Sequence record: PX880101.1
Reading direction: 5' to 3' (one strand)
Length of the DNA stretch: 64,000 nucleotides
Source of the DNA: a phage
Numbering within the stretch: the first letter of the stretch is position 1; each line of letters begins with the position of its first letter. The notes under the pieces are model-generated. The model had not been told where the DNA came from and did not search any database. It worked only from the letters and a program-made list of their open reading frames with translations. This document shows positions 29,995 through 58,805 of the stretch, piece after piece. The translations under genes were made by a program, and so were the position numbers.

Positions 29995-30021
29995 GCCCTG
30001 CCCGAAAGGGTGGGGCTTTTT
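29995..30021 (+). terminator. intrinsic terminator (repeated element, copy 1)
   Basis: gccctgccc-gaaa-gggtggggc plus T5; the same 22-nt hairpin recurs at 41057. Confidence 0.6.
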
Positions 30022-41056: not shown

Positions 41057-41085
41057 GCCCTGCCCGAAAGGGTGGGGCATTTTTG
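41057..41085 (+). terminator. intrinsic terminator (repeated element, copy 2)
   Basis: Identical gccctgcccgaaagggtggggc hairpin plus T5, directly after the HNH gene. Confidence 0.6.
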
Positions 41086-44581: not shown

Positions 44582-44892
44582 TACTTGAAAATTCCTGGCA
44601 TATCAAGTGTAAGGGGGATTTCTAAAATGGATTTCCTCCTTTTGATATTTCACCGGGCTGGATATTTTAAAATTCTTAGAAAATCAGAAAATGGATCGAA
44701 AACTAAAATGGATTTTTCAGAGTAGGCGCGACAAGCTGAATAACTCATCCTATCGTTTGCACCATATTCCAGGCCACCATTATAGATTTCCCACACATGC
44801 TAACCTCCCTCTACTAGAACTTCCTCCACTTGCCCTTAACCTTCTATGGTAACAATCTAACCACTATCTTGAAGTTGCGGTGCAGCTTTCCA

Positions 44893-45025
44893 AGTACTCG
44901 ATCTACTTTTCATTTCATGGCTTGGATTTTCTGAAAATTTTTCTCGATAAATTTCTCAGTACTCGATCTGTTTTTCGTTTTCTGAATCGGATTTTCTGGA
45001 AATCGTTCCGGATCTCGACCTGAAA
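44893..45025. repeat. imperfect tandem direct repeat, two 65-bp units
   Basis: agtactcgatct…ggattttctg…ttctc occurs at 44893 and 44958 in the same order and spacing. Confidence 0.6.
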
Positions 45026-45130
45026 TTTTTGGGGACGAAATCGATTTTTCGTTTTCAGAAATGGATTTTTAAAATTTCTATATGGGAATATTTTATGGGA
45101 TACTGTTTTATAGGAAATTGTTACGGAGGG

Positions 45131-46560: not shown

Positions 46561-46608
46561 GACACAAAAGGCGGGAATGTTTCCCGCCAACACAAAGGAA
46601 AAAAGATC

Positions 46609-47004
46609 ATGAATAAGAACGTACGCCGCATCATGAACGAACTGGCAAACGATGAAAAAATTATTGATATGCATTTGGTAAACATTTGCCGCCGTTGTGT
46701 AACATATAACAACCGCGCCGCAAAAGCGCGTGAGATGAACGCAAAAGGCACCTTAAAGCCCTTTCAGGTGGTTGTAAAATCTATAACCAGTGCAGCAGAC
46801 CAGGCGCATGACCACAACAACGGGAGCACTAATATTGATCCGTCTTACGTAATGAAACGGATCCGGACTTGCAAGAATAAAGAGCAGGTGTATAACGTCA
46901 TAGATTGGTTGGACTCCCTGGGCGATGTGGTTTATAATAGGTTTTCTGCAGCTATCGAGATCCAGCTTGACAGACTGGACGGGAAAGTACTGAAAACTTA
47001 CTAA
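46609..47004 (+). CDS. hypothetical protein
   Basis: 131-aa ORF, RBS aaggaaaa. Confidence 0.55.
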   Translation: MNKNVRRIMNELANDEKIIDMHLVNICRRCVTYNNRAAKAREMNAKGTLKPFQVVVKSITSAADQAHDHNNGSTNIDPSYVMKRIRTCKNKEQVYNVIDWLDSLGDVVYNRFSAAIEIQLDRLDGKVLKTY

Positions 47005-47052
47005 GTTTATTTTTAGATGGCCTTGACGCCAGGGCCATCAATAAAGTAAACT
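47005..47052 (+). repeat. promoter-stem-loop cassette (PeSL-like), copy A
   Basis: ttatttttagatggccTTGACgccagggccatcaataaagTAAACT: 7-bp stem gatggcc/ggccatc with the -35 hexamer in the loop, -10 18 nt downstream. Confidence 0.6.
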
Positions 47053-47083
47053 AATCCCAGTTAAGCTAAAAGGAGGCTTGAAG

Positions 47084-47203
47084 ATGAGCACTACACGCCA
47101 GCACACAAAGGTAACTATTATCGTTTGCATCATTGGTTATATCCTGGCGCAAATGTTGATGGGTAGCGCCAACGGTGTCGCAAAATTTTTCTTAAACTTT
47201 TAA
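47084..47203 (+). CDS. small membrane peptide (39 aa)
   Basis: Not in ORF track; strong RBS aaaggagg; hydrophobic core IIVCIIGYILAQMLMG. Confidence 0.4.
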   Translation: MSTTRQHTKVTIIVCIIGYILAQMLMGSANGVAKFFLNF

Positions 47204-47231
47204 TTGACAAGCTAACTTAGATCGGTATACT
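47204..47231 (+). promoter_or_regulatory. sigma70-like early promoter
   Basis: TTGACA-16 nt-TATACT, then leader hairpin gggaaaacttccc. Confidence 0.55.
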
Positions 47232-47281
47232 AAACACATCAACGGGAAAACTTCCCAGAACACACAAAAGGAGAAAACACC

Positions 47282-47623
47282 ATGACCACTATGACCGCCG
47301 CAGAAAAAGCTATTCAGATCGCTGCCCTGAAAAAACAGATCGCAGACCTTGAGAATAAGATCGATAACTTTGAAATCGACGAGGACAAGTACGACGAAAA
47401 CTATGATGAATGGTTAGACGAGATCTACGGCGAAATTATGATCGGAAACATTTCTTTTCTTCCGTCGCGTATCCTCAAGGAGCTAGATCCTATCGCTTAC
47501 CGCTGCGGATTTAGCGACTACATCGACAGCCTGGATATTGAGGACGATGAAGAATACCAGGAATTACAGACAGAGTTGGAAGAAGCAAAAGAAGAGCTTG
47601 CGGAGCTGGAAGAAAACGAGTAA
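47282..47623 (+). CDS. highly acidic protein; candidate DNA-mimic/anti-restriction factor
   Basis: 113 aa with very high Asp/Glu content (…DIEDDEEYQELQTELEEAKEELAELEENE); RBS aaaggag. Confidence 0.5.
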   Translation: MTTMTAAEKAIQIAALKKQIADLENKIDNFEIDEDKYDENYDEWLDEIYGEIMIGNISFLPSRILKELDPIAYRCGFSDYIDSLDIEDDEEYQELQTELEEAKEELAELEENE

Positions 47624-47671
47624 GATTATTTTTAGATGGCCTTGACTCCAGGGCCATCAATAAAGTAAACT
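47624..47671 (+). repeat. promoter-stem-loop cassette (PeSL-like), copy B
   Basis: gattatttttagatggccTTGACTccagggccatcaataaagTAAACT; one mismatch to copy A. Confidence 0.6.
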
Positions 47672-47712
47672 TTATACTGTTAACACTGAACTAATGCATA
47701 GGAGTTAAAACC

Positions 47713-47958
47713 ATGGCAGCACTAATCACTAAATATTACGCCCCTACCAACACCAAAAGCGCCCGTATCATGGTAAAAGGCTTCGGACGTAAAAAGGTTT
47801 ACACCTGGGATTATGCCTTAGACACGGAAGACAACTACACCAACGCGATGACAGATTTTATTAATGAGCTGAACACGCGGATCTTGACAAATTATAAAAT
47901 TACCGATATTGCCTATATAGGGGAAGGCGGGATCTGTTTTGTCGGTATCGTCAAATAA
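47713..47958 (+). CDS. hypothetical protein
   Basis: 81-aa ORF, RBS aggag. Confidence 0.5.
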   Translation: MAALITKYYAPTNTKSARIMVKGFGRKKVYTWDYALDTEDNYTNAMTDFINELNTRILTNYKITDIAYIGEGGICFVGIVK

Positions 47959-48016
47959 ACTGTTTTTTCGGTGGTCCTGGTAGCAGGGCCATCTATAAAG
48001 ATAGTTTATCAATACA

Positions 48017-48388
48017 ATGAAAGGAGAAAGTAACATGATCAGTGGGGCAAGTTTTATTATTGGCGCTATTGCTACGGCTTTAATTGTAAACAAGATCCAA
48101 TCTAAAAACGAAAAAGAGAGCAACGCGCTCACAGAATACCCATTTTGGATATTCAACGACAATGAAGACTACATTATCAAGTACAAGAATGAGAAGGGCG
48201 ACCAGGTAACACCGCGACCGATCCCGGCCTACAAGATGCAAGAAACACTATACCGCCTAAAGGCTGGAGGCGCAAAAATCGTAGACTTTTGGGGATATGA
48301 TTGCAAGGATCAGGAGGTTATAAAACGGCGTATCCGGGCTATTCAGGCCAATATTGAAGTTAGCAAGGGGGGAATATATGAAGATTAA
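48017..48388 (+). CDS. hypothetical protein with N-terminal hydrophobic segment
   Basis: 123 aa, RBS aaaggag; preceded by a degenerate PeSL-like hairpin (47971-48000). Confidence 0.5.
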   Translation: MKGESNMISGASFIIGAIATALIVNKIQSKNEKESNALTEYPFWIFNDNEDYIIKYKNEKGDQVTPRPIPAYKMQETLYRLKAGGAKIVDFWGYDCKDQEVIKRRIRAIQANIEVSKGGIYED

Positions 48389-48575
48389 TTTTGAGAAGAT
48401 TGTAAAGCGATCTCATGATTCCGAAGAGCTGCCGGAACGCCGCCAGCGTAACAATAAACTGAATAAGCCAAAAAGATTTGGGAAGATCTGGCGGAATCAT
48501 TATGATCGTAAATTGCCGGGCCTCCTTTTGGAACGTGAACGGCAGGCGGAACGATACCGCCACAAAGGCAACTAA
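48378..48575 (+). CDS. small basic hypothetical protein
   Basis: ATG 48378 after RBS aagggggg (ORF open from 48354). Confidence 0.4.
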   Translation: MKINFEKIVKRSHDSEELPERRQRNNKLNKPKRFGKIWRNHYDRKLPGLLLERERQAERYRHKGN

Positions 48576-48583
48576 CAACCAAC

Positions 48584-48612
48584 GCCCCGCCATCGTGCGG
48601 GGCTTTTTATTT
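48584..48612 (+). terminator. intrinsic terminator
   Basis: gccccgc-catcgt-gcggggc followed by tttttattt. Confidence 0.65.
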
Positions 48613-48755
48613 CTACCCTACGAATAGCGCCCCTGGTTGGCCCTGTAAGCGCCAAAAAGGCCCCACCTATGCAATCGCCCCCTTTAACCTGAAAACATCG
48701 CTTAGGGCCGTTTTATGGCGTTAAAAATATCATTGACAGTGATTTTATTTAAAGC

Positions 48756-48783
48756 TTGACATCTTAAACAGGTTAGCTATACT
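48756..48783 (+). promoter_or_regulatory. sigma70-like early promoter
   Basis: TTGACA-16 nt-TATACT; a second TTGACA lies 23 nt upstream. Confidence 0.55.
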
Positions 48784-48815
48784 AACCACATCAAAGAGAG
48801 AAAGGAGTAAACGCC

Positions 48816-49076
48816 ATGCGTAAATTAAAAAATTTTGATAAAGTTGATGTTGTCCTGAATAATTTTTACTACTGCAACAACAAGGCCATTTGGTGGCGTG
48901 ATAGTTCCACCGATAAAGTCAAGGCGCGCTTTCTCCAGGGGCACTGGCAAGGCCGCCCAGTGATTAAAATCATGGGGCAATTGGTAGCGTTTAAAAATTG
49001 CCGCCGTGTTGATGACGTTGAGGAGATTTTAAACATTTTGCGCCACAATAATTTAAAAAATAGTGTTGACAAGTAA
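48816..49076 (+). CDS. hypothetical protein
   Basis: 86-aa ORF, RBS aaaggag. Confidence 0.5.
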   Translation: MRKLKNFDKVDVVLNNFYYCNNKAIWWRDSSTDKVKARFLQGHWQGRPVIKIMGQLVAFKNCRRVDDVEEILNILRHNNLKNSVDK

Positions 49077-49093
49077 ATCTCAATAAGTATAAT
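49066..49093 (+). promoter_or_regulatory. sigma70-like early promoter
   Basis: TTGACA-16 nt-TATAAT overlapping the stop of the upstream gene; leader hairpin ggcgggaaaacttaccgcc. Confidence 0.55.
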
Positions 49094-49150
49094 TAAACAC
49101 ACAGGCGGGAAAACTTACCGCCACTAACAAAGAAAACAGGAGAAAATATC

Positions 49151-49774
49151 ATGACCACCGTTAACATTACCACAGGTTACAATTTATCTTTCGACGTGCT
49201 GACCGACGAACAAAAAGAAAAAGCCATTGAAATGGTACGCGAAAGAGAAGAACACAGCGGGGATGACTTTTTTGCAGAAAGTGTAATTGAACACTACAAA
49301 GAATATATCTTTCCAGAGTACGGCCTTGAAGATACCGAAGTACATTGGTCCGGCTTTTGGTGCCAGGGTGACGGCGCGTCAATCAGTGCTGAAAACGTGG
49401 ATTTAGAAAAATTTTTGCGTAAAGTAAAGGCCCTGACCAAGTTCCGATCAATTCGTCACTTGTTCGGCACAATGCACGATGGCGAGTTATCAGCCAGTGT
49501 TGAACGCGACAAGTACAGCCATTACAGCCATGAAAACACTGTAAGCGGATACATTGATACCACCTGGCTAGATCTGACCGCCAAACAAGAAAACAAAGTG
49601 GAAGACCTGGAAGAGCTGATCACCGAGACGGTACGGGAGCTATCCCGCAAGGTTTACGTAGACCTGGAGGAGGCCTATCTAGAACAGTTCACTACCGAAA
49701 ACCTGATCGGCCTTATTGAGGCCAATGATTGGCGGTTTGATGTGGATGAATATGGAGAGATGAGTTTTTCATAA
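49151..49774 (+). CDS. acidic hypothetical protein
   Basis: 207-aa ORF, RBS caggaga; net acidic. Confidence 0.55.
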   Translation: MTTVNITTGYNLSFDVLTDEQKEKAIEMVREREEHSGDDFFAESVIEHYKEYIFPEYGLEDTEVHWSGFWCQGDGASISAENVDLEKFLRKVKALTKFRSIRHLFGTMHDGELSASVERDKYSHYSHENTVSGYIDTTWLDLTAKQENKVEDLEELITETVRELSRKVYVDLEEAYLEQFTTENLIGLIEANDWRFDVDEYGEMSFS

Positions 49775-49782
49775 ATAAAGTG

Positions 49783-49810
49783 TTGCAATAATCTAAAAAC
49801 CTGCTATATT
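49783..49810 (+). promoter_or_regulatory. sigma70-like early promoter
   Basis: TTGCAA-16 nt-TATATT, then leader hairpin ggggcaagacgtttgcccc. Confidence 0.45.
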
Positions 49811-49865
49811 AAAACTCAAGGGGGGGCAAGACGTTTGCCCCACACAAAACAAAGAGGAAAACATT

Positions 49866-50246
49866 ATGAAAAACACTACTAAAGCTATTGACACCGTTAT
49901 GTTTAACCTGGTTACCTTTCGCGAGGATATGAAAGATCTTCCACGTGAAACAGTGTGCGATCACATTGAAAACTATCGCAAACTAATCAAAGAGTTGCCT
50001 TTAAAACGTGACCAGTATGCGGCTAACGCTATGCTCAACGCCATGATCAAAAAGATGATTCAGTGTGATTTAACCCTGGCCTATGATTATGCAGGTGGTC
50101 GTTTTGCAGTATACAATCAGCCCGTGCCTGGTATGAGCACCACCGAAGAATTGCACGCGTTAAATCTGAAACAAGATGTATGGGATAACATGCCCCGCGT
50201 GGTGGTGTGGGCAGAAAGCGGAAAGATTTACGGCGATAATTTTTAA
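49866..50246 (+). CDS. hypothetical protein
   Basis: 126-aa ORF, RBS agaggaaaa. Confidence 0.55.
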   Translation: MKNTTKAIDTVMFNLVTFREDMKDLPRETVCDHIENYRKLIKELPLKRDQYAANAMLNAMIKKMIQCDLTLAYDYAGGRFAVYNQPVPGMSTTEELHALNLKQDVWDNMPRVVVWAESGKIYGDNF

Positions 50247-50256
50247 TCAGGTAACA

Positions 50257-50284
50257 GGCGGCATATTTGCCGCCTTATTGTTAA
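50257..50284 (+). terminator. intrinsic terminator/attenuator
   Basis: ggcggc-atattt-gccgcc followed by ttattgtt. Confidence 0.5.
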
Positions 50285-50310
50285 ACAGAACTGCAAAAGA
50301 GGTACATAGA

Positions 50311-50682
50311 ATGGAATTTATTATTTTGGCTGTAGTAGTTGCCTTGTTCAACGCCTGGATCGCTGGCAAGATAGGTAGATCCGCTTTTCTATGGTTTGTT
50401 ATATCTATTTTCCTGGGAGTGGTTGCAACTATTGTATTGGTTATCCTTGCAATTGTTGACAAGGGCGATAATAGAAAGGGTAAAGTGTTTTCCGACCTGT
50501 ATGACGCACAAACGTTTGTCAACGCCTATTATAGTGATCTTCCAGTCTCCCTACGCTGCAGCCTGGCACAACAGGTTTTTGATGAGGCTAAAACCAGAGA
50601 CCAAGCCCATGAGATATGTTTAACTGAAGCGGATCGCCTATTTGAGAGGAATAGAAAATATGTGGACCAGCCGTTTAAATAA
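50311..50682 (+). CDS. membrane protein with two predicted TM helices
   Basis: ATG 50311 after RBS aaagagg (ORF open from 50176); MEFIILAVVVALFNAWIAG and FLWFVISIFLGVVATIVLVILAIV. Confidence 0.5.
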   Translation: MEFIILAVVVALFNAWIAGKIGRSAFLWFVISIFLGVVATIVLVILAIVDKGDNRKGKVFSDLYDAQTFVNAYYSDLPVSLRCSLAQQVFDEAKTRDQAHEICLTEADRLFERNRKYVDQPFK

Positions 50683-50792
50683 CGCCACGTTAATTAATCC
50701 CTTTAGTGAAGATTTGAAGCCAGCCGCCTGGCGTGACGGATTCAATAACGAACGCTTTATTTTCAGGCCTGATCTTGAGGAATTTTATAACA

Positions 50793-50918
50793 ATGGATCG
50801 AACAACAGCGGAGATAATTTTTCTTGTGGTGTGCGTGGTGATAGGACTCCTGGGGGCCATTGTAAACCACGTCACTACTAACAGGAGGGAAGGGGGAGAC
50901 GATGACAACCAAGGATAA
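50793..50918 (+). CDS. small membrane peptide (41 aa)
   Basis: Hydrophobic core IIFLVVCVVIGLLGAIV; an alternative overlapping frame (50660-50881) cannot be excluded. Confidence 0.25.
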   Translation: MDRTTAEIIFLVVCVVIGLLGAIVNHVTTNRREGGDDDNQG

Positions 50919-51021
50919 GCCATGCGCTGATAAGGTGCGCCGTGTTATGGTATGGCTTGAGATTATCGCCCTTGAAATATTGTTAGGCGTAGGGATGTAC
51001 TTTATCGCTGTAAGTAACTAA
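50902..51021 (+). CDS. small membrane peptide (39 aa)
   Basis: Not in ORF track; RBS aggagggaaggggga; hydrophobic core VMVWLEIIALEILLGVGMYFIAV. Confidence 0.3.
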   Translation: MTTKDKPCADKVRRVMVWLEIIALEILLGVGMYFIAVSN

Positions 51022-51025
51022 GAGC

Positions 51026-51053
51026 GGCCCCCGATCATGGGGGCCTATCTTTT
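51026..51053 (+). terminator. intrinsic terminator
   Basis: ggccccc-gatcat-gggggcc followed by tatctttt. Confidence 0.65.
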
Positions 51054-51075
51054 AAAAAATTTTTCTTCCGGGGTG

Positions 51076-51103
51076 TTGCAATCCGGTCCGGAATGTGGAT
51101 AAT
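51076..51103 (+). promoter_or_regulatory. sigma70-like early promoter
   Basis: TTGCAA-16 nt-GATAAT, then leader hairpin ggggagctaatcccc. Confidence 0.45.
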
Positions 51104-51159
51104 AACAATCAACGGGGAGCTAATCCCCACCACCACAAAAACCAGAAAGGAGAAACAAA

Positions 51160-51360
51160 ATGAGCAACAATATCCGCGTTATTAACTTCAAAAAAGAAGA
51201 AAAAATTGCCGTGCTGATTGACGGTCAAGAAATCTTCAAGGGCGACTATGAAGATCATCAAACGGCGATTAGTATCACTCGCGTGATTGGTTATCATAAT
51301 TTCTACCCCCAAGGCGCTGAGGCAGCAGTTAAACGAATCAAAGAGATTGTAGGCCTGTAA
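51160..51360 (+). CDS. hypothetical protein
   Basis: 66-aa ORF, RBS aaaggaga. Confidence 0.5.
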   Translation: MSNNIRVINFKKEEKIAVLIDGQEIFKGDYEDHQTAISITRVIGYHNFYPQGAEAAVKRIKEIVGL

Positions 51361-51362
51361 AA

Positions 51363-51409
51363 TTTATTTTTAGATGGCCTTGACTTCAGGGCCATCGATA
51401 AAGTAAATT
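51363..51409 (+). repeat. promoter-stem-loop cassette (PeSL-like), copy C
   Basis: tttatttttagatggccTTGACTtcagggccatcgataaagTAAATT; same architecture as copies A and B. Confidence 0.6.
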
Positions 51410-51444
51410 TAAACCCTGTTAAAATACCACGCAGTTAACAAGGA

Positions 51445-51753
51445 GTGATAGACATGTTTATCCAGGCTAATAATCTTTATTTCTTTGATGGTCAGATCGT
51501 AGATGGTGTGGAAGTGGAGATCACCGGGTGCCCTGGCGGTCAGGCTATGACTTTTCGGAATAATGCCTTTGATGATTCTCATATCGTTATGAGAATGGAA
51601 GTTACGAAGCTGGACGACAAGAAAACACTTATTGACTATTCTGTGAAAGATCATCCAGACTACCGCATGATCCATGGTGATTTGTGCATTGTTGACCGTG
51701 ACAAGGTGGGCGGCATTGTGATCGCTATTGTGAACGATGTTTTCTCAAACTAA
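51445..51753 (+). CDS. hypothetical protein
   Basis: 102-aa ORF, RBS aaggag. Confidence 0.5.
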   Translation: MIDMFIQANNLYFFDGQIVDGVEVEITGCPGGQAMTFRNNAFDDSHIVMRMEVTKLDDKKTLIDYSVKDHPDYRMIHGDLCIVDRDKVGGIVIAIVNDVFSN

Positions 51754-51930
51754 TTTCAGCAGGCGATTTTATGAAAGTCAAACTATATTACCTTAATGAG
51801 CTTAACCCCCTTGCCCAGGTCCGCGCCCTAGCTAATACCTTGATTTGTGAGAAATCTGTATATTGTGTTGAGCTTAACACGTCTCAAAGGTGGTTACTTT
51901 GACATCCATGCTGCAATCAACGGCCTGAAT

Positions 51931-52110
51931 ATGGAATTTATACGCTTACGTAACAGCCGCCGGAATCTGGCAAGAATGGAACAAGATCCGGCCCACCTTC
52001 GCAAGCTGGTTATTGAAAATCATCTGATGTTTAATGCCGAGGGGGATTATTACCATTTTCACCGCAAACGCTGGTACCGTGGCGGCAATACAGGCAAGAA
52101 TGCAAAATAA
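51931..52110 (+). CDS. small basic hypothetical protein
   Basis: In frame with ORF 51847-52110; start ambiguous (ATG 51847 or 51931); a 43-aa ORF at 51771-51902 is an alternative neighbour. Confidence 0.35.
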   Translation: MEFIRLRNSRRNLARMEQDPAHLRKLVIENHLMFNAEGDYYHFHRKRWYRGGNTGKNAK

Positions 52111-52147
52111 GGCCCCTAGCAGGGCCTGCAGCAATATAATCACATAA

Positions 52148-52179
52148 AGGCCATGCGGTTGCATGGCCTTTATTATTTT
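52148..52179 (+). terminator. intrinsic terminator
   Basis: aggccatgc-ggtt-gcatggcct followed by ttattatttt; preceded by a second hairpin ggcccctagcagggcc. Confidence 0.65.
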
Positions 52180-52227
52180 GGCGTTACAACGGCATACGGG
52201 GCGCTTAAAAAATTTTTAAAGAAGTAC

Positions 52228-52256
52228 TTGCATCATTCCCGACAATATGGATAATA
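52228..52256 (+). promoter_or_regulatory. sigma70-like early promoter
   Basis: TTGCAT-17 nt-ATAATA, then leader hairpin gggggaggccccc. Confidence 0.45.
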
Positions 52257-52312
52257 AGAGTTGTCGAGGGGGAGGCCCCCAATCGTTGACCAGATAGATA
52301 GGAGTTAAAATC

Positions 52313-52597
52313 ATGGCTATTGTTACCGCTGGCGATGTAGTAGAAATGGAAGCAAAATACTTAAAAGCGGGTATGCACATCCTACGGAATGATCAAGAGT
52401 TATTATTAACGATGGTTGACTATAATCACGGCCAGGATTATCCAAGCATCGACTACTTTTTTGAGTATGTTGATGAAGAGTTGAAAGAGGATGAGGCCTA
52501 TTGCGGTGAGTTCTGCAACTTCTTTTGTCCTGATGAGGTTGTAAAGGTTATTTATCAACCTGGCGTAGCTTTCCCGCTGCACGCTATCAATAAATAA
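52313..52597 (+). CDS. hypothetical protein
   Basis: 94-aa ORF, RBS taggag. Confidence 0.5.
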   Translation: MAIVTAGDVVEMEAKYLKAGMHILRNDQELLLTMVDYNHGQDYPSIDYFFEYVDEELKEDEAYCGEFCNFFCPDEVVKVIYQPGVAFPLHAINK

Positions 52598-52652
52598 ACC
52601 TGGCGGGGCCGAAAAGGCCCCCAATTATGAAAATAAAGAGAGGCAAATCATC

Positions 52653-52886
52653 ATGATGGAACAAATTAAACGCGCCGAGGCTATTAATGGCAACGTGATC
52701 TATTTTGTCAGCAAAAACGAAAAAGGCGTACCATATGCGGCAGTAATAGTACAACCTGACGGCGATTATTGGTTTACTGTGTACGGCGCTTATTCTTTTG
52801 GGCGTCCAGTGCATGATAAAATTTTGAAAGTAGCGAACCCTACCGGGAAGAATATCACAGCAGAAAAATTTTTTGAAAATAGTTGA
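52653..52886 (+). CDS. hypothetical protein
   Basis: 77-aa ORF, RBS agagagg; leader hairpin ggggccgaaaaggcccc. Confidence 0.5.
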   Translation: MMEQIKRAEAINGNVIYFVSKNEKGVPYAAVIVQPDGDYWFTVYGAYSFGRPVHDKILKVANPTGKNITAEKFFENS

Positions 52887-52910
52887 CATGACCATATAAG
52901 ACTGTAATAT
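52883..52910 (+). promoter_or_regulatory. sigma70-like early promoter
   Basis: TTGACA-16 nt-TAATAT; the -35 overlaps the stop codon of the upstream gene. Confidence 0.5.
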
Positions 52911-52961
52911 ATAAATCAAAGGGGGCAACGAACCCCACCAACTACAAAGAGGATAAAAATC

Positions 52962-53141
52962 ATGGCTATTATTGCAAAGACTGAGATCGTAGGCTTAGAT
53001 TCTATTCTCCTCGCATATGAGGAAGCTATAGAAATGTATGTGGTTTCCTATGGTGAGTATATCCGTGAATATAAATCTATTGATCTGGCTTTTGAATGTT
53101 ATATCCGCCAGGTTAATAAAGCGTACGATGATTATCGTTAA
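52962..53141 (+). CDS. small hypothetical protein (59 aa)
   Basis: Not in ORF track; RBS aagagga; downstream of promoter and leader hairpin gggggcaacgaacccc. Confidence 0.45.
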   Translation: MAIIAKTEIVGLDSILLAYEEAIEMYVVSYGEYIREYKSIDLAFECYIRQVNKAYDDYR

Positions 53142-53147
53142 AATAGT

Positions 53148-53177
53148 TTGACAACAGCCATCTTACAAAGCATAATA
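53148..53177 (+). promoter_or_regulatory. sigma70-like early promoter
   Basis: TTGACA-18 nt-ATAATA, then leader hairpin ggcggtggaatggtccgcc. Confidence 0.5.
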
Positions 53178-53228
53178 CATAAGGCGGTGGAATGGTCCGC
53201 CACCTGGAACAAAGAAGAGGTAAACACC

Positions 53229-53474
53229 ATGAAAAGCAATAAAGGTTATAACGGTTACAAAAACAAAACTCATTGGAATGTAAGCCTTTGGATTAATAAC
53301 GATGAGTCATTGTACCGGTTGGCCCAAGGCTTTATTAACGCCAATGCTAATCGTAATGATGCGGCGCGGGATATGATGCTTTTTCTGGAGCTAACCGGAC
53401 AAGATAAGACCCCGGACGGCTTCAAGTACAGCACTACGGCGATCCGTGCCGCGATGGTTGGAATGAAACACTAA
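53229..53474 (+). CDS. hypothetical protein
   Basis: ATG 53229 after RBS aagaggtaa (ORF open from 53148, which would overlap the promoter). Confidence 0.5.
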   Translation: MKSNKGYNGYKNKTHWNVSLWINNDESLYRLAQGFINANANRNDAARDMMLFLELTGQDKTPDGFKYSTTAIRAAMVGMKH

Positions 53475-53665
53475 AAGCACATAGCTGCCTTACCCTGGGG
53501 CTGTGGTAGCGGCCCCATGAATAAGGTTACTAACAGAAGAGAATAAACACCGTGAAACAGAAATTAATCGATGCAGTGATCTTGGTTATTGCCCTGGGTA
53601 TTGGCCTGATTGCAACCATGTCTAATATGATCTTGTCTTCCAACGGTATCTGGTGAGGTTGGCAA

Positions 53666-53881
53666 ATGATCACTAACAAAACAGGCAAAACGGAATTTTT
53701 ACGCAACTTACAGATCGGCAAGCCTGAGATCTGGTACTGCACTAAAACACCGCGTGACGAAATGAAAGACTTCACCGCCACGCTGCAACGGGTAAAGATA
53801 TCTATCACGCAGAAAAAGGCCTTACTAGTGGTGGAAGGGGAGATCCCCCAAACCGTTGTTATAGTTGAGCGTACAGCATAG
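53666..53881 (+). CDS. hypothetical protein
   Basis: 71-aa ORF, RBS gaggttgg; a 34-aa hydrophobic peptide ORF (53551-53655, GTG start) may precede it. Confidence 0.45.
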   Translation: MITNKTGKTEFLRNLQIGKPEIWYCTKTPRDEMKDFTATLQRVKISITQKKALLVVEGEIPQTVVIVERTA

Positions 53882-53972
53882 TTTAATTTATACAGATACC
53901 TGAAAATTAACCAACAAAGCATAAACAGGCGGTTACCGCCGCCTTAAACGTAGCAGAAAGAGGATAGACACA

Positions 53973-54257
53973 ATGAAAAAGATGATCGCAGTGGTTACCC
54001 TGGTTGTTGGACTTAATGCGCCTGTAATGGCTAAAGAGCTGGCAAAAGAGGTTAATCTAACGGATATTCATGCCGTCAATCAAATCGGGGTTACTTATCG
54101 CTTATGCCTTGCCGCTAAAACTTTTAAGGACGGCACAACAGAGTACTACGGATTCGAGGGTATCCGGTGCGGTGAGCTTGCTCGCGACCTTAAGGAAGAT
54201 CCAGACCTGGAGGAACTGCCCATAACCGTGAACGGGAAAACTTACGTGAACCGTTAA
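53973..54257 (+). CDS. secreted/periplasmic small protein
   Basis: 94 aa; signal-peptide-like N-terminus MKKMIAVVTLVVGLNAPVMA; RBS aagagga. Confidence 0.5.
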   Translation: MKKMIAVVTLVVGLNAPVMAKELAKEVNLTDIHAVNQIGVTYRLCLAAKTFKDGTTEYYGFEGIRCGELARDLKEDPDLEELPITVNGKTYVNR

Positions 54258-54259
54258 CC

Positions 54260-54394
54260 ATGAGAAAGATAATTATTACCATGGGGATCGTGGCGGCAAT
54301 GTTGGCGATCTTTCCCTTTATGGTTAGGTATGTGCTGATTAATGTTGTCCTGGTAGTCAGCGATCTGGTGTTATATATTAACTCATTGTTTTAG
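54260..54394 (+). CDS. small membrane peptide (44 aa)
   Basis: Not in ORF track; hydrophobic MGIVAAMLAIFPFMVRYVLINVVLVVSDLVLYI; 2 nt after the upstream stop. Confidence 0.3.
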   Translation: MRKIIITMGIVAAMLAIFPFMVRYVLINVVLVVSDLVLYINSLF

Positions 54395-54402
54395 GCGCGA
54401 TA

Positions 54403-54594
54403 ATGACAGCGGAAGAAGTTAAAAAAGTACTGGCGGTACTGCGTTATCATAATCATTGCAAGGTGAAGAATGATCCTGATTATCTTGATTCATCCCTTGA
54501 AGAGGATACACTACAAGCCATAAGCAACATGCAAGAATTGCTTAAGCGTATGACAGAGAAAAACCGACCGGACTACATAGGGGGTAAAATATGA
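54403..54594 (+). CDS. hypothetical protein
   Basis: 63-aa ORF. Confidence 0.4.
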   Translation: MTAEEVKKVLAVLRYHNHCKVKNDPDYLDSSLEEDTLQAISNMQELLKRMTEKNRPDYIGGKI

Positions 54595-54902
54595 TCGCTA
54601 TTACGCCAACCGTTTTAGATTGGTATCGGCAACGCATAGCGCCTCCGCTGGCTATCTTCAAAGATGCGGAAGCAAAACAACGCCGGATCTCAATACATGA
54701 GATCATCAACCTTAACGCTGGAGGCACACCATACCGCCCAGGACCTGGCCGTGAGATGGACAATACATTGGCGATCCTGAAGATACGCCGTAAACGGTCC
54801 TCCCTTACGCTGGATTCATTACACACAATGCAGTCTCCGTTCCAGGTGACTGGGAAACGGATCGCCAGGTCCTGGACAAAGGCCAATGACCGGACCGTAT
54901 AA
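54591..54902 (+). CDS. basic hypothetical protein
   Basis: 103-aa ORF, 4-nt overlap with upstream gene. Confidence 0.45.
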   Translation: MIAITPTVLDWYRQRIAPPLAIFKDAEAKQRRISIHEIINLNAGGTPYRPGPGREMDNTLAILKIRRKRSSLTLDSLHTMQSPFQVTGKRIARSWTKANDRTV

Positions 54903-54968
54903 ATAAAAAGTGTTTTGGTACTGATTTTGGGGTTGACTTGTTCGGCCCCTTTTGCTATTCTTATTAAA

Positions 54969-55013
54969 CGGGCGGCACTTGGGAACAGGGGGAGACAATC
55001 ACCAGGCCTGCCT
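54969..55013 (-). repeat. GC-rich repeated element, copy 3 (inverted relative to copy 1)
   Basis: Reverse complement reads caggcaggcctggtgattgtctccccctgttcccaag, about 30 of 34 identical to copy 1 at 45217. Confidence 0.55.
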
Positions 55014-55037
55014 GTCATATAAGAACTATAAAAACCG

Positions 55038-55067
55038 TTGACATCTGCCAGGGGGGTGGGGTAACAT
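55038..55067 (+). promoter_or_regulatory. sigma70-like early promoter
   Basis: TTGACA-18 nt-TAACAT, then leader hairpin gggcaaaggtgccc. Confidence 0.4.
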
Positions 55068-55121
55068 TTATCTTGAAGGGGCAAAGGTGCCCACACAACA
55101 ACCAGAAGAGAGGAAAACACT

Positions 55122-55394
55122 ATGTCAAGCTGGATTAATCAAGAAGTCGAATCACGTTTTAATGCTATTTGGGATCTCATCGAAAAAGAAGACGGCACAT
55201 CAAGCCCCTACCTCAACAATTTGGAATTCCATTTTGTGGAAGCGATGAACGCAGAACATGATCACGAAGGTGGTGCGGACGAGTTCGCTAAAGGGTATGG
55301 CTTCAATAATGCCAACGAAATGATCGAGGCGGTTGTACTCCAGGCTGAGGAAGATTATCAATTAAAAACGCTTGAATTCTGCCGCCGTAAGTAA
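55122..55394 (+). CDS. acidic hypothetical protein
   Basis: 90-aa ORF, RBS agagagga. Confidence 0.5.
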   Translation: MSSWINQEVESRFNAIWDLIEKEDGTSSPYLNNLEFHFVEAMNAEHDHEGGADEFAKGYGFNNANEMIEAVVLQAEEDYQLKTLEFCRRK

Positions 55395-55454
55395 TAGGAT
55401 AATGACACGGGCCGGGAGGCCCACTAATCAGAACCACACAAAGAGGTAAACATC

Positions 55455-55718
55455 ATGAAACGTCTTGATCAGCTTAAACTAGTTCAGTACATGGCCTACA
55501 AAGTTCTTGAAGTCCAAAAAGGTAGCAAAAAAGAGGTTTGCGAGAAAGCATATAAGATCTTTACCCGTAAAAAAGATGATTGGATGTTACGCCAGACCAA
55601 AAAAGCCGATATCCTGGGATACCTGGAAGAAGAGATCCGACTTGAAGAACAAGAAGAGATCCGCCGTAGTGAGGCAGATTATCAGGCAGCTTGGGAAAAC
55701 TGGATGAGTAACAAATAA
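55455..55718 (+). CDS. hypothetical protein
   Basis: 87-aa ORF, RBS aagaggtaa; leader hairpin gggccgggaggccc. Confidence 0.5.
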   Translation: MKRLDQLKLVQYMAYKVLEVQKGSKKEVCEKAYKIFTRKKDDWMLRQTKKADILGYLEEEIRLEEQEEIRRSEADYQAAWENWMSNK

Positions 55719-55785
55719 TACAACAAGTTACATGGTCAGGGGCAATAAAGCCCCTTGATCGCATAAAAAATTATGCTATCCTTGG

Positions 55786-55814
55786 TTGACAAGGATCGTC
55801 AGTTTTGCTATATT
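55786..55814 (+). promoter_or_regulatory. sigma70-like early promoter
   Basis: TTGACA-17 nt-TATATT. Confidence 0.55.
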
Positions 55815-56328: not shown

Positions 56329-58805
56329 GTCTGTATTTCTCCTACCACAAACGGCCCAGCCTGGCAAGTGGAATAATTGACTAGCCATCAATCCCACACA
56401 CTGTACAAATATACATGGAAAATAACTATTGCATAATTTTTCATTGTGTGGTAGCAAGTCCATTTTTACCCGTTTTCTCTCTCAAAATTGCACGTAATGC
56501 CGCTATTGCACAAATTTTAACCTGATGCACATCTCCAATATCTTGTCAACAACTAAAAATCTTTATAAGTCATACACTTACACAGCATCGAAAGCGTGTT
56601 CTACGCGAAAAATCGAGTATAACTATAGCCGCCAGATCTCAGAATTCACGTACGCACGCCATTCTATAGCCTGCAAAGTATTTATTCCAACCACAGAATA
56701 ACGGAATAGTCAATACCTGCATAAAATAATTATTCGTGTAAACTGCATAACATAAATCAGCTCAGGTGTCAACATTTTTCGTAAACAGTCCGAAATTATC
56801 ACGATGAGTTATCATAAACAGAGAAATCTTTAGTCGTCTAATGTTTACTGTACATTACTATACTGACTGGAATCATTAGATGACTAAGAGAAAGATAAGA
56901 AATAATTAATAATGTAATTATTTTACCTGTAACAATAAGGCAACTATGCAAACGAATGGCATGGCGCGACGGAGTCGCGACATAATATAAAAGCAGTAAC
57001 CATCACCCCCGTGATAGTTTGTCTGCAATCTATTAATCAGATCATAGTTGCCTTGTATTCAGTTAATCATGACATAATAAGCAAGGCAACTATAGATCTG
57101 CTAATAGTTGCCCTGCTTTTATATTATGTCATAGAAACACCCGAAGGGGTGACCAAAGGTCACCTGGCATGGCCAGTGAAAGATTATTAACTTGTTAATT
57201 GTTAACTTGCTAATTGTTTTCATGCAAACGAATGTCATGGCTTATCCTATCTGTGTAAACAGTTAAGGTGTAAACTATCCAGGCGTAAACAGTCTATGCG
57301 GGAACAATCTATACGTGAACAGTGAAACATGAAATAATAACAATCGTTATTGTGTCGAAAGTGTATAAGGTGTCATAGTATGTCAGACAAGTTTTTCTCC
57401 TCTTTGTCAAGTGCTGCATGAAAATTTACAAACTGGTATGGTAGCATTTTTGCGGCCCTGTTTACATTCAGTTGTGTATGTATAACCCTTGTTGTGTGGG
57501 CGTTTAGACGTCTGGACGGTTGGAAGTCTACAGGTCAATATCTAATCTATTGGCTGCTAACTATATCCCACACAAATAGTAAGAAATACAATTGTTATGT
57601 GAGTAAACGGTAACTCATGTTATCAATCCCTGTATGGATCGCCAGTGGTGCGCATAATGGGTATTATGTTAAATTGCCCGTAATGATAACTATTCTCACA
57701 ATGATAGGTATTCTCATTCACTCCCACAAGATAGGTTGCAAATGTTGTGCCACTGTGTGAACGGCCTCACCTATTAATTTGCCTCACTGCCTCGATATTT
57801 GAGAATTGTTATAAGAATGAGAAGTATTCCCATTTCGTCCGCCTGGCAGCACTCCAGTCGCTACCGCTCATGACAGGGCAGAACTGGGTCCATTCAGATA
57901 TTTCTGGCTGACTCTTCAGGTCTGTGTGGGAAAAGCCAACCTCTCCGGCGGGGCAGGGGTAGGTCAATTAAAAAATTTACGTGGTGTATGAAGAGCCCTT
58001 CAGGTAAGGCATGTATTATGGGATGAAACACCCTTCAGGCAATGATATTTGTGGGTGGGATATTTGCTGGAAAGCCAGATATGACGGGACTCCTGGCGGG
58101 GCAGGGGTAGTACAGACAGGGGAAATATGGTGGATGTAGTTGGGTGGATTGATCAGGCAGGTAGAGTATGGAATATGTTACAAGTATGTTAAATATGGAG
58201 GATGAATATCTGTAGGATTTGTGTGTAAAATCAAAGACTTAAGTGGTGTTGTGGTATTTTCTATAAATAATTCAAGTTTAATAGGTAATATTTGTCTCTA
58301 TCCGCTTTGTGTGGTAAACAAATTCAGATGGTGTTGGTTTACAAGTGTATACATAATATACAAATTAAAGATACAAGAAACCCCCCTCCCCCTTCGGCTA
58401 CCATTCACCTTTTCCTCTGACTGGTACTTAAACACTTATTCAGACTCTTCAGGTTATCACCCATATATCATATGGCAGTGACTGGTGTCCTCCGGCCCCT
58501 CTTTCGTCACCCGTCCGCTTCGCCATGCTAATGCCATAGCCAACGGTTCGGTTGTTCACCCTGTTCACTCAGGTGTATCTCCATACCCCTTCAAACCGAA
58601 GAGAACAGAAAACCCGAATTACTCGGTAAAAGAAAAGAGAAGAACTTAATTTTATCAGGATAGGCAAGAATGTCAAGGCATGACTGCTCACTAAACAAGC
58701 AAACAGTCATGTGTGGAAGGTAAGTGATTGTGGTGGTAGGAAATTTAGTTGAAAGATGTGTTATAGGTGCGCTTCCAGCACTTTAGCCGGGCAGCTAATT
58801 GTGTG
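56329..58805. other. 2.5-kb ORF-free, repeat-dense region between convergent gene blocks
   Basis: No ORF with an RBS. 18-bp inverted repeat gacataatataaaagcag (56979-56996 and 57113-57130); hairpins cgcgac-gga-gtcgcg (56965) and ggtgacc-aaa-ggtcacc (57148); direct repeats atgcaaacgaatgNcatggc (56946, 57231); gtaaacagt-like iterons (57252-57325); ctggcggggcaggggtag twice (57935, 58093). Confidence 0.5.

Follow-up and report, generated by a model that had tools for sequence, protein, structure and literature searches.

Intergenic elements that combine a conserved RNA hairpin with a predicted promoter among the early genes of an rV5-like phage

Introduction

In large virulent phages, small genes of unknown function crowd the early regions; many of these genes are suspected to be anti-defence or host-takeover factors, and their individual expression, gain and loss are, to our knowledge, poorly understood outside T4 and T7. 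Phage genomes also carry moron-type cassettes, single-gene units composed of a promoter, a gene and a terminator. Here we analyze a family of intergenic elements of ca. 56 nt, comprising a hairpin and, in most copies, promoter-like hexamers, that lie among small early genes in a stretch of 64,000 nt (the window) of the phage sequence record PX880101.1. The nearest described counterparts are the promoter early stem-loops (PeSLs) of the T4-type phages RB49/phi1, PST/T4 and nt-1/KVP40, which consist of an AT-rich tract, sigma-70-like hexamers, a stem-loop, a Shine-Dalgarno (SD) sequence and an ATG, situated among small open reading frames (ORFs) of unknown function (Arbiol et al., 2010, PMC2839356; Comeau et al., 2014, PMC4122927).

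The elements resemble PeSLs in that an AT-rich tract and a sigma-70-like promoter with an overlapping stem-loop are followed by an SD and an ATG, in their location among small unknown ORFs within a region that varies between close relatives, and in that recombination between two copies explains the insertion or deletion (indel) of a cassette. In contrast, they occur in Vequintavirus and not in T4-type phages, there are four per genome, far more alike in sequence, instead of dozens, and their hairpin is of 20–23 bp, two-tiered, without a U-tract and encloses the promoter, whereas PeSL stem-loops are poly-G/poly-C structures shown to terminate transcription; additionally, one of the copies lacks a promoter and most nearby indels do not involve the elements. 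A sequence-only reading of this DNA had described them as PeSL-like. This is right for their organization and for one recombination outcome, but the analogy is incomplete on anatomy and probably wrong on the role of the hairpin: neither the terminator form nor the dozens of copies, the T4-type host or a general shuffling at the elements apply here.

A second term of comparison are the RNase III sites of phage T7. The substrates of this enzyme span about two helical turns, possibly as two stacked helices; internal loops limit their cleavage to one strand, and the hairpin left at the 3′ end protects the upstream RNA (PMC1540722). At least 11 bp separate the cut site from the loop in a minimal substrate, where the distal box comprises U-A and U·G pairs, the latter strictly needed, and the proximal box comprises 4 bp; a G-C or C-G pair at position 2 of the proximal box is inhibitory, and a G-C pair at position 4 can suppress cleavage without blocking binding (PMC1540722). 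Our tentative preference, on which we place slightly less than even confidence, is that the elements described here are intergenic punctuation modules of an early region transcribed by the host RNA polymerase.

Four copies of the element in a block of small early genes

The best match of the 5.5 kb around the repeats was Escherichia phage A6-1 (99.7 % identity; 124 phage records matched), the other matches being Vequintavirus (rV5-like) myoviruses with 90–97 % identity. The region is a rightward block of small early genes, equivalent to rV5 ORFs 194–178, and every ORF flanking the elements was assigned to PHROGs of unknown function. As claimed by the sequence-only reading, a repeat is found at three intergenic sites: its core, GATGGCCTTGACNCCAGGGCCATC, occurs at 47016, 47635 and 51373, with no matches in 100 shuffled sequences. 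A repeat finder extended this to a family of 51-nt direct repeats at 47002, 47621 and 51359, which are 88–96 % identical, and 47956, with 67 % identity. We built a covariance model from the element sequences (model R1) and searched with it the window, rV5, T7 and the loci containing homologues of the neighboring genes. The model identified exactly four members in the window, with 70–80 bits and the next match at 13.6 bits; the complete rV5 genome likewise yielded four and no more, all within 4.4 kb, between ORFs 194/193, 192/191, 191/190 and 179/178. There are therefore four copies and not three near-identical copies plus a degenerate one, because the supposedly degenerate copy is a full fourth member (copy 4) that is degenerate only as a promoter.

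All four copies are on the + strand. Copy 1 (47001–47056) is located between the homologues of rV5 ORF194 and ORF193, with a folding energy of −25.0 kcal/mol (z −6.4) and 80.0 bits with model R1; the corresponding values are −22.3 kcal/mol, z −6.0 and 80.1 bits for copy 2 (47620–47675, ORF192/ORF191), −24.7 kcal/mol, z −5.0 and 79.3 bits for copy 3 (51358–51413, ORF179/ORF178), and −28.2 kcal/mol, z −7.9 and 70.1 bits for copy 4 (47955–48010, ORF191/ORF190), which is a hairpin only. Each copy opens with the TAA stop codon that ends the ORF upstream of it (47002–47004, 47621–47623, 51358–51360 and 47956–47958, for copies 1, 2, 3 and 4); thus, a 131-aa ORF (46609–47004, + strand) and a 66-aa ORF (51160–51360, + strand) supply the stop codons that open the lower stems of copies 1 and 3. 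The ATGs that follow copies 1, 2 and 3 (47084, 47713 and 51454) are 31–44 nt past the −10-like hexamer, compared to the 35–40 nt proposed earlier, so that the arrangement with a stop codon just 5′ and a start codon soon after holds; an SD sequence (AAGGAGG, TAGGAG and AAGGAG, respectively) is found 6–9 nt upstream of them.

The elements have gone largely without annotation. A search of Rfam with a permissive threshold (44–58 kb) did not identify any family at their positions, none of the 33 promoters and 20 terminators tabulated in the rV5 genome paper corresponds to them, and the rV5 GenBank record contains no feature at these sites; the record of phage Gotham marks copies 2 and 3 as predictions of the PhagePromoter software. 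Likewise, our literature search returned no paper on these elements and no transcript maps of Vequintavirus or Seuratvirus. A scan of IMG/VR with the pattern CAGGGCCATCNATAAAG produced 18 loci, of which three, in two contigs, were relevant and the others were chance matches.

The copies form a two-tier hairpin conserved on the sense strand

RNA folding predicted the same two-tier hairpin for every copy in the window, consisting of an A/U lower stem of 10–13 bp, an internal loop of 2×3 nt, a G/C upper stem of 10 bp and a tetraloop. The upper stem is formed by GAUGGCCUUG/CAGGGCCAUC, including one U·G pair, and in the lower stem the T-rich 5′ part is paired with the −10 region; in copy 1, the lower stem corresponds to 47004–47013/47043–47052, the upper stem to 47016–47025/47030–47039 and the loop to 47026–47029 (+ strand). 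The 7-bp stem enclosing the −35 hexamer, noticed in the sequence-only reading, is thus real, but it extends to 10 bp with the U·G pair and holds the TTG of the hexamer within the stem; folding bore out the stem-loop as part of a longer structure, whose second stem of 10–13 bp had gone unnoticed.

The four copies have folding energies of −22 to −28 kcal/mol and z-scores of −5 to −8, and none of 200 shuffled sequences was as stable. Their reverse complements fold less well (about −13 to −17 kcal/mol in the window copies; −8.5 to −21 kcal/mol for the minus strand when the copies of relatives are included) because several of the pairs are G·U. The strand difference is illustrated by copy 4, the most stable of the four on the + strand (−28.2 kcal/mol, versus −12.7 on the − strand), which retains the full two-tier hairpin through G·U pairs and compensatory changes. 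In a scan of positions 43–59 kb, the four elements were the strongest single hairpins and showed the greatest strand asymmetry among those in intergenic positions.

The same architecture was found in 39 copies from 12 genomes, the sole exception being copy 1 of Gotham, which has lost half of the upper stem, and with it the fold, through a 7-nt deletion. In an alignment of 23 distinct sequences, 98 % of the cells were paired, versus 33–58 % when the partners were slid. Four lower-stem pairs change on both sides (e.g., G-C/A-U and C-G/U-A) and the three variable pairs of the upper stem change through G·U only; none of the 23 sequences deviates in the 3′ arm, CAGGGCCAUC, or in the following AUAAAG, and the 5′ arm varies. 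Additionally, the four positions are orthologously conserved across ca. 120 genomes whose flanks diverge by 5–15 %. These results indicate, with high confidence, that the hairpin is under selection as an RNA of the sense strand.

Copies 1 to 3 contain a predicted promoter

Copies 1–3 contain the sequence TTGACN-18 nt-TAAAYT, which matches the sigma-70 consensus at 9 of 12 positions. The −35-like and −10-like hexamers are TTGACG (47023–47028) and TAAACT (47047–47052) in copy 1, TTGACT (47642–47647) and TAAACT (47666–47671) in copy 2, and TTGACT (51380–51385) and TAAATT (51404–51409) in copy 3, all on the + strand, so that the pair of hexamers separated by 18 nt anticipated from the sequence is present at the three copies; the spacing in PeSLs is ca. 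17 nt. Directly 5′ of the promoter there is a T-rich tract, TTTATTTTTA, which doubles as the 5′ arm of the lower stem. Copy 4 contains neither TTGAC nor any usable −35/−10 pair. The loop bases A and C, which complete the TTGAC motif, are kept in nearly all copies and the next two are free (GC, TC, TT, AC or CC); this conservation supports the existence of a promoter, because the hairpin alone would not need these bases. The match to the consensus makes a promoter plausible, and we predict that it is probably active in copies 1–3.

Two other early promoters of the window have their −35 hexamer within unrelated hairpins. The one at 54929–54961 comprises GGGGTTGACTTGTTCGGCCCC with TTTT and TATTCT after it and, as a composite of terminator and promoter, is nearer to a classical PeSL than the elements are, and the one at 55778–55814 comprises ATCCTTGGTTGACAAGGAT with TTGACA-17-TATATT.

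Counterparts of the element flank a homologous gene in other phages

Copies 2 and 4 are situated on the two sides of an 81-aa ORF (47713–47958, + strand; rV5 ORF191, phrog_3199), whose product did not match any Pfam, NCBIfam or PDB entry. A tblastn search revealed homologues with ca. 45 % identity in Seuratvirus (phages Skure, CAjan, Greed, slur01, Cronobacter CSP1 and Aeromonas SD04) and more distant ones in Pseudomonas myoviruses and T7-like Klebsiella podoviruses. The ORF at 52313 was also considered as a paralogue, but it has in common with the 81-aa gene a leader sequence and is not a paralogue.

The 81-aa gene is the only one common to Skure and the window, and the two best matches of model R1 in the 49 kb of Skure are precisely the two intergenic flanks of its homologue (22.1 and 19.5 bits; next match, 14.7 bits). 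Flanking matches were also obtained in CSP1, CAjan, SD04 and the loci L043–L045. The Skure flanks adopt this two-tier fold as well, from the upstream stop codon onward, with −22 to −28 kcal/mol, z ca. −5 and a weaker fold on the other strand. The sequences of the upper stem are entirely different from those of rV5-type phages, and even between the two copies of one genome. Compensatory changes are again present: two upper-stem pairs that are C-G in Skure are U-A in CSP1, and the A that is bulged in Skure finds a pairing partner in L045, where a U has been inserted. The upstream copy of Skure contains TTGAT in the apical loop and a promoter-like sequence with 9 of 12 matches, and the downstream copy contains neither, as occurs in the window. 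Since the Skure hexamers are ca. 7 nt out of register with those of rV5 relative to the hairpin, the hairpin, and not the promoter, appears to be the conserved part.

Among 44 IMG/VR loci with a homologue, elements were found only in two Vequintavirus and three Seuratvirus-type contigs, always on both sides of the gene; a third lineage (L068) contains a borderline downstream hairpin of the same plan. No such hairpins were found at the loci of the homologues from Nonagvirus SP8, Pseudomonas KIL3 and Klebsiella cp31, and that of KIL3 is annotated with its own promoter and terminator. The other genes adjoining the elements show contrasting distributions, with distant homologues of the 113-aa gene that precedes copy 2 (47282–47623) scattered in unrelated phages, and the 99-aa ORF located 3′ of copy 3 (51454–51753, + strand) being restricted to Vequintavirus. 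Taken together, homologues of the 81-aa and 113-aa genes occur in Seuratvirus, Nonagvirus, Pseudomonas Flaumdravirus and Otagovirus, T7-like phages of Klebsiella and Proteus, and Vibrio myoviruses; in the T7-like phages they stand at the very start of the early region. No match to a family or a structure pointed to a function for either product.

The hairpin is unlike a terminator and resembles T7 RNase III sites

The sequence form of the hairpin makes it unlikely to be a canonical intrinsic terminator, because it is not followed by a T-run or U-tract, the sequence AAUAAAG... appearing instead. None of the 28 terminator-like sites obtained in a terminator scan of 44–58 kb is an element. The arms also have the opposite polarity to those of a terminator, the T-rich one coming first and the A-rich one second. 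Besides, copy 4 lies between two genes without a promoter of its own, so that strong termination at this point would deprive the genes downstream of transcription.

For comparison, we folded seven T7 sites (R0.3, R0.5, R1, R1.1, R1.3, R4.7 and R18.5) at positions that we take to be those of Dunn and Studier (1983). They showed a lower stem of 5 bp, an internal loop of 4×5 nt, an upper stem of 10 bp and a loop of 3–5 nt. The identity of R1.1 was confirmed by its GCAA tetraloop and its U12:G27 pair, which match those described in PMC1540722. A second covariance model (R2) was built from these seven sites only.

Both kinds of hairpins are intergenic, start right after a cistron and comprise a lower stem, an asymmetric internal loop, an upper stem of ca. 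10 bp and a loop of 4–5 nt, extending for about two helical turns; in the elements these are made up of 10–13 bp plus 10 bp around a 2×3 loop that is asymmetric in all copies. The 10-bp upper stem of the elements compares with 9–10 bp in T7, where the 11th position is within the internal loop. In both cases U·G wobbles confer strand specificity. Read from the loop, the pairs of copies 1–3 (GC UA UG CG ...) are akin to those of T7 R1.1 (CG UA UG AU ...), with U·G and U-A pairs, like those of a distal box, at upper-stem pairs 8 and 9. Those of the hairpin downstream of the Seuratvirus gene (CG UG AU CG UG CG GC ...), as found in Skure, have their five apical pairs in common with T7 R1 (CG UG AU CG UG GC GC ...). 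Copy 4 reads GC UA CG and, by analogy with the numbering of R1.1, position 2 of its proximal box is G·U where that of copies 1–3 is A-U; the Seuratvirus copies have U·G and U-A pairs in other registers. Several of the T7 sites also deviate from the canonical distal box.

The differences concern the lower stem (10–13 bp and A/U-rich, versus ca. 5 bp), the internal loop (2×3 versus 4×5), the G-C pair beside the internal loop of the elements, the absence from them of the T7 sequence AAGGUC...GGCCUUUAUGA, and the lack of a canonical distal box at the R1.1 positions in copy 4 and the Seuratvirus copies. Moreover, the promoter is inside the hairpin of the element and beside it in T7. In T7, promoters adjoin several sites, namely the E. 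coli C promoter at R1, phi1.1A/B at R1.1 and phi1.3 at R1.3, which provides a classical precedent for a module with a promoter and a processing site.

Searches with the models in both directions pointed, weakly, to the same likeness. In 128 kb of window sequence, copies 1, 2 and 3 ranked 2, 3 and 5 among the matches of R2, with marginal scores (15.5–17.3 bits, E 0.06–0.19) and alignments that were full length with zero broken pairs; over the 44 loci with homologues of the 81-aa gene, the top four matches of R2 were elements (E 0.03–0.67, also marginal). Conversely, the best match of R1 in the whole T7 genome was the R1 site, at a marginal 12.5 bits (E 4.7). The elements are therefore putative RNase III substrates, a proposal that has slightly less than an even chance of being correct.

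A separate hairpin at 52135–52181 (AAAGGCCATGCGGTTGCATGGCCTTT), located after an ORF ending at 52110, is the best match of the T7 model R2 in the window, with 24.8 bits (E 0.0003) on the − strand; on the + strand it scores 17.1 bits and is terminator-like, being followed by TTATTATTTTGG.

Recombination between copies 1 and 2

A segment of 619 bp, corresponding to a cassette plus one repeat copy (47053–47671), separates copies 1 and 2 and contains a 39-aa hydrophobic ORF (47084–47203), a near-consensus promoter (47204–47231; P192 of rV5) and the 113-aa acidic/coiled-coil ORF, all on the + strand. These 619 bp are missing from ECP32, magaca and the IMG/VR contig L013, which retain a single copy, bordered on the left as copy 1 is and on the right as copy 2 is, the junction being inside the repeat. 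Searching GenBank with a 100-nt query spanning the junction state, the hybrid junction was found in six records (A147, ECP26, ime, magaca, ECP32 and phiWec189), whereas the interior of the cassette was present in 115 of ca. 121 records and hence absent from ca. 5 %. The ca. 50 bp of identity between the copies constitute a substrate for homologous recombination, and the gap is the only indel of at least 25 bp among eight genomes in 45.6–51.75 kb; the indel almost certainly originated by recombination between copies 1 and 2. The event is either a deletion or an insertion, as a side effect of the repeats. The three comparable genomes without the cassette are not mutual nearest relatives in either flank, their nearest neighbors carrying it, and the state must thus have arisen more than once or spread by recombination.

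The fragment 47084–47623, proposed by the sequence-only reading as a mobile cassette, is therefore a natural presence/absence polymorphism with its junction inside the repeat. The same proposal for 47713–51360 did not survive the comparison, since a junction between copies 2 and 3 was found in none of 121 records and no relative lacks this interval. Likewise, the comparison of gene content at the repeats in related genomes connects the elements with the copy 1/copy 2 indel but not with others. The region 51700–55500 is hyperplastic with respect to the genomes L002–L004 and L023–L026, with at least six indels or replacements of 150–1000 bp. Those at 51746–52100, 52653–53661, 53240–53532 and other positions do not have an element or a long repeat at their bounds, and show at most short microhomology near ribosome-binding sites. 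Mosaic breakpoints are also scattered and not at elements; for instance, the identity between the window and phage isim switches near 47450 and 48300. Because the other indels and the breakpoints map elsewhere, the elements account for one specific indel and not for the general plasticity of the region.

Two related observations deserve mention. The rV5_ev146 genome (LR699804.1), a laboratory-evolved derivative of rV5, has lost ca. 0.5 kb and 6.5 kb of the early region (46598–47096 and 48526–54997), including copies 1 and 3, by junctions with only ca. 15-nt overlaps that are not at elements or long repeats, and these genes and elements are thus dispensable under its growth conditions. Also, the "repeat_region" of the phage isim annotation is not an element but another repeat, coding and located within the 113-aa gene. 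The location of a hairpin after a cassette gene recalls the attC sites of integrons, but their core-site motifs, as judged by eye, do not fit those of the elements; we know of no integrase in these phages.

Interpretation of the elements

The hairpin is most likely a signal for RNA processing or stability, which we regard as putative. As punctuation modules, the elements would operate at two levels. Within mRNAs that read through from upstream promoters, the hairpin would act as a double-strand-specific signal for processing and for stabilization of 3′ ends, such as those recognized by the host RNase III between early genes of T7. Cleavage within the internal loop would detach the upstream message from the next cistron and leave it with a protective hairpin at its 3′ end. 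In copies 1–3, this signal would be overlaid by a sigma-70-type promoter whose TTGAC sits at the hairpin apex, preceded by a T-rich, UP-like tract, and whose TAAAYT, after an 18-nt spacer, belongs to the 3′ arm of the lower stem. Such a promoter would start transcription anew for the gene that follows, and the resulting transcripts would begin beyond the hairpin and not include it. Copy 4 would be a hairpin only, inside an operon. An RNase III-type signal is the best available reading of the hairpin, and the chances for and against it are roughly even.

Several observations weigh against this interpretation. Covariation is limited to few independent events, all of them toward sense-strand pairing, and their small number is a caution. 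The homology of the Seuratvirus hairpins is weakly supported by model scores of 18–29 bits together with position. The promoter of the element is weaker than its neighbors, which match the consensus at 11–12 of 12 positions with spacers of 16–17 nt, given its 18-nt spacer and weak −10; it is not among the promoters listed by the rV5 authors, and it is missing from copy 4 and from Gotham copy 1. The scores of the RNase III models are marginal (E 0.03–0.7 in one direction and 4.7 in the other) and, since copies 1–3 are near-identical, they count as a single observation. Copy 4 and the Seuratvirus elements do not contain the canonical U-A/U·G distal box at the R1.1 positions, and the latter were not found by the T7 model R2. 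Finally, an invariant G-C pair adjoins the internal loop, and the upper stem has 10 bp versus the minimum of 11 bp of a minimal substrate.

A more ambitious proposal concerns the 81-aa gene. The unit element-gene-element around it (47620–48010) is the better-supported mobile unit, and we infer that hairpin-gene-hairpin constitutes a portable unit. In its fullest form, the RNase III-type hairpins and the enclosed gene would be a portable expression unit moved between Vequintavirinae myoviruses and Queuovirinae siphoviruses, with a promoter in the upstream hairpin and with hairpins that would insulate the mRNA and serve as homology handles; we consider this doubtful. Such a unit would be reminiscent of morons in that a small accessory gene with its own expression signals is found in unrelated phage families, as illustrated by the scattered homologues of the 81-aa and 113-aa genes. 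It would differ from them because both flanks are hairpins of one family, instead of a promoter and an intrinsic terminator, and because the phages involved are virulent and not temperate.

A serious alternative to the punctuation reading, in spite of its rather low probability, is that the hairpin is an RNA element other than an RNase III substrate, such as an exonuclease barrier, a pause or folding element, or a protein-binding site setting the stability or translation of the cistrons. It draws on the same structural evidence, and the invariant 3′ arm and AUAAAG, opposed to a variable 5′ arm, hint at a sequence-specific recognition; the marginal scores of the RNase III models and the G-C pair next to the internal loop also fit. 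Nevertheless, an exonuclease barrier would need neither a fixed 2×3 loop located 10 bp from the apical loop nor two helical turns, and the apical identities with T7 R1 and R1.1, as well as the reciprocal model matches, would have to be a coincidence.

A classical PeSL, with a stem-loop that works as a terminator or attenuator, a promoter that restarts transcription, and copies that mediate gene shuffling, including through mini-circles, appears similarly unlikely. The composite layout fits the published description, the small ORFs of unknown function are in a region that is hyperplastic among relatives, and the repeat-bounded 619-bp indel, seen in six GenBank records and one IMG/VR contig, is polyphyletic as judged by the flanks. 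RB49-like genes are also found nearby in rV5, whose early ORFs 205, 206, 209, 210 and 167 are annotated as similar to RB49 hypothetical proteins, indicating that small early genes are common to these two families too. However, the absence of a U-tract, the reversed polarity of the arms and the absence of the elements from the terminator scan argue against termination, and a strong terminator at the promoterless copy 4 would silence the genes downstream. Furthermore, there are just four copies per genome, no junction between copies 2 and 3 exists in 121 records, and other indels and mosaic breakpoints are not at elements.

Three further explanations are highly improbable. The inverted repeat GATGGCC-N10-GGCCATC centred on the −35 has a common operator layout with an invariant 3′ half-site, and could bind a dimeric repressor that shuts off the early promoters, but copy 4 has no promoter to repress and alters one half-site only, via transitions that keep a sense-strand G·U, the second A/U stem and its compensatory changes would have no place, and in the Seuratvirus counterparts the structure persists although their stem sequences are entirely different. 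The geometry of the inverted repeat also suits a DNA hairpin or cruciform, extruded by supercoiling or in single-stranded DNA and acting as a promoter modulator or as a recombination or replication signal, but the hairpins have little stability when folded with DNA parameters (−10 to −12 kcal/mol on the + strand and −6 to −10 kcal/mol on the − strand), extrusion is disfavored by the G·T pairs, the internal loop and the mismatches that arise on the other strand, and the strand asymmetry is that expected for a transcribed sense strand. The copies might also have no function, being left over from recent duplications or insertions that brought in an ordinary promoter, with an incidental fold, as the possible recency of copies 1–3 (88–96 % identity), the deletion tolerated by Gotham in copy 1 and the lack of copies 1 and 3 in rV5_ev146 might suggest, but this is disfavored by four orthologous positions in ca. 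120 genomes with flanks 5–15 % divergent, by the persistence of the structure in copy 4 and the Seuratvirus copies after sequence divergence, and by z-scores of −5 to −8 unequalled in stability by any of 200 shuffles.

Other features of the window

Some other structures were observed in the window. A near-perfect palindrome of 26 bp at 57040–57099 (GATCATAGTTGCCTTG...CAAGGCAACTATAGATC; −25.1 and −22.6 kcal/mol on the two strands) is within a stretch of ca. 2.6 kb that the rV5 authors call "non-coding" (rV5 104013–106618), and could be an origin or a packaging-related site. Positions 44884–45069 contain three direct repeats of ca. 47–62 nt spaced by 65–74 nt (AAATTTCTCAGTACTCGATCTGTTTTTCGTTTTCTGAATCGGATTTT), with no convincing ORF there, the last of which overlaps an A/T-rich hairpin of 16 bp. 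The same terminator-like hairpin, GCCCTGCCCGAAAGGGTGGGGC(T/A)TTTT, appears at 29995–30021 and 41057–41083, 11 kb apart and with 96 % identity. Lastly, 17 unannotated MG0656xx records of "Campylobacter phage" (C7, C9, A112b and others) show 94–97 % identity with this E. coli Vequintavirus over the region, and their Campylobacter host label looks doubtful.

Biological implications

The elements would extend promoter-stem-loop cassettes beyond the T4-type phages, and would suggest that mRNA punctuation of the RNase III type, a hallmark of T7, is used by rV5-like and Seuratvirus phages. The 81-aa gene would be a concrete example of a gene that travels between phage families with flanking RNA structures and, if the portable unit is true, it links T7-style mRNA punctuation with PeSL-style gene shuffling. 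The copies also mark positions where rV5-like phages used in therapy or biocontrol can gain or lose genes, or take engineered cassettes.

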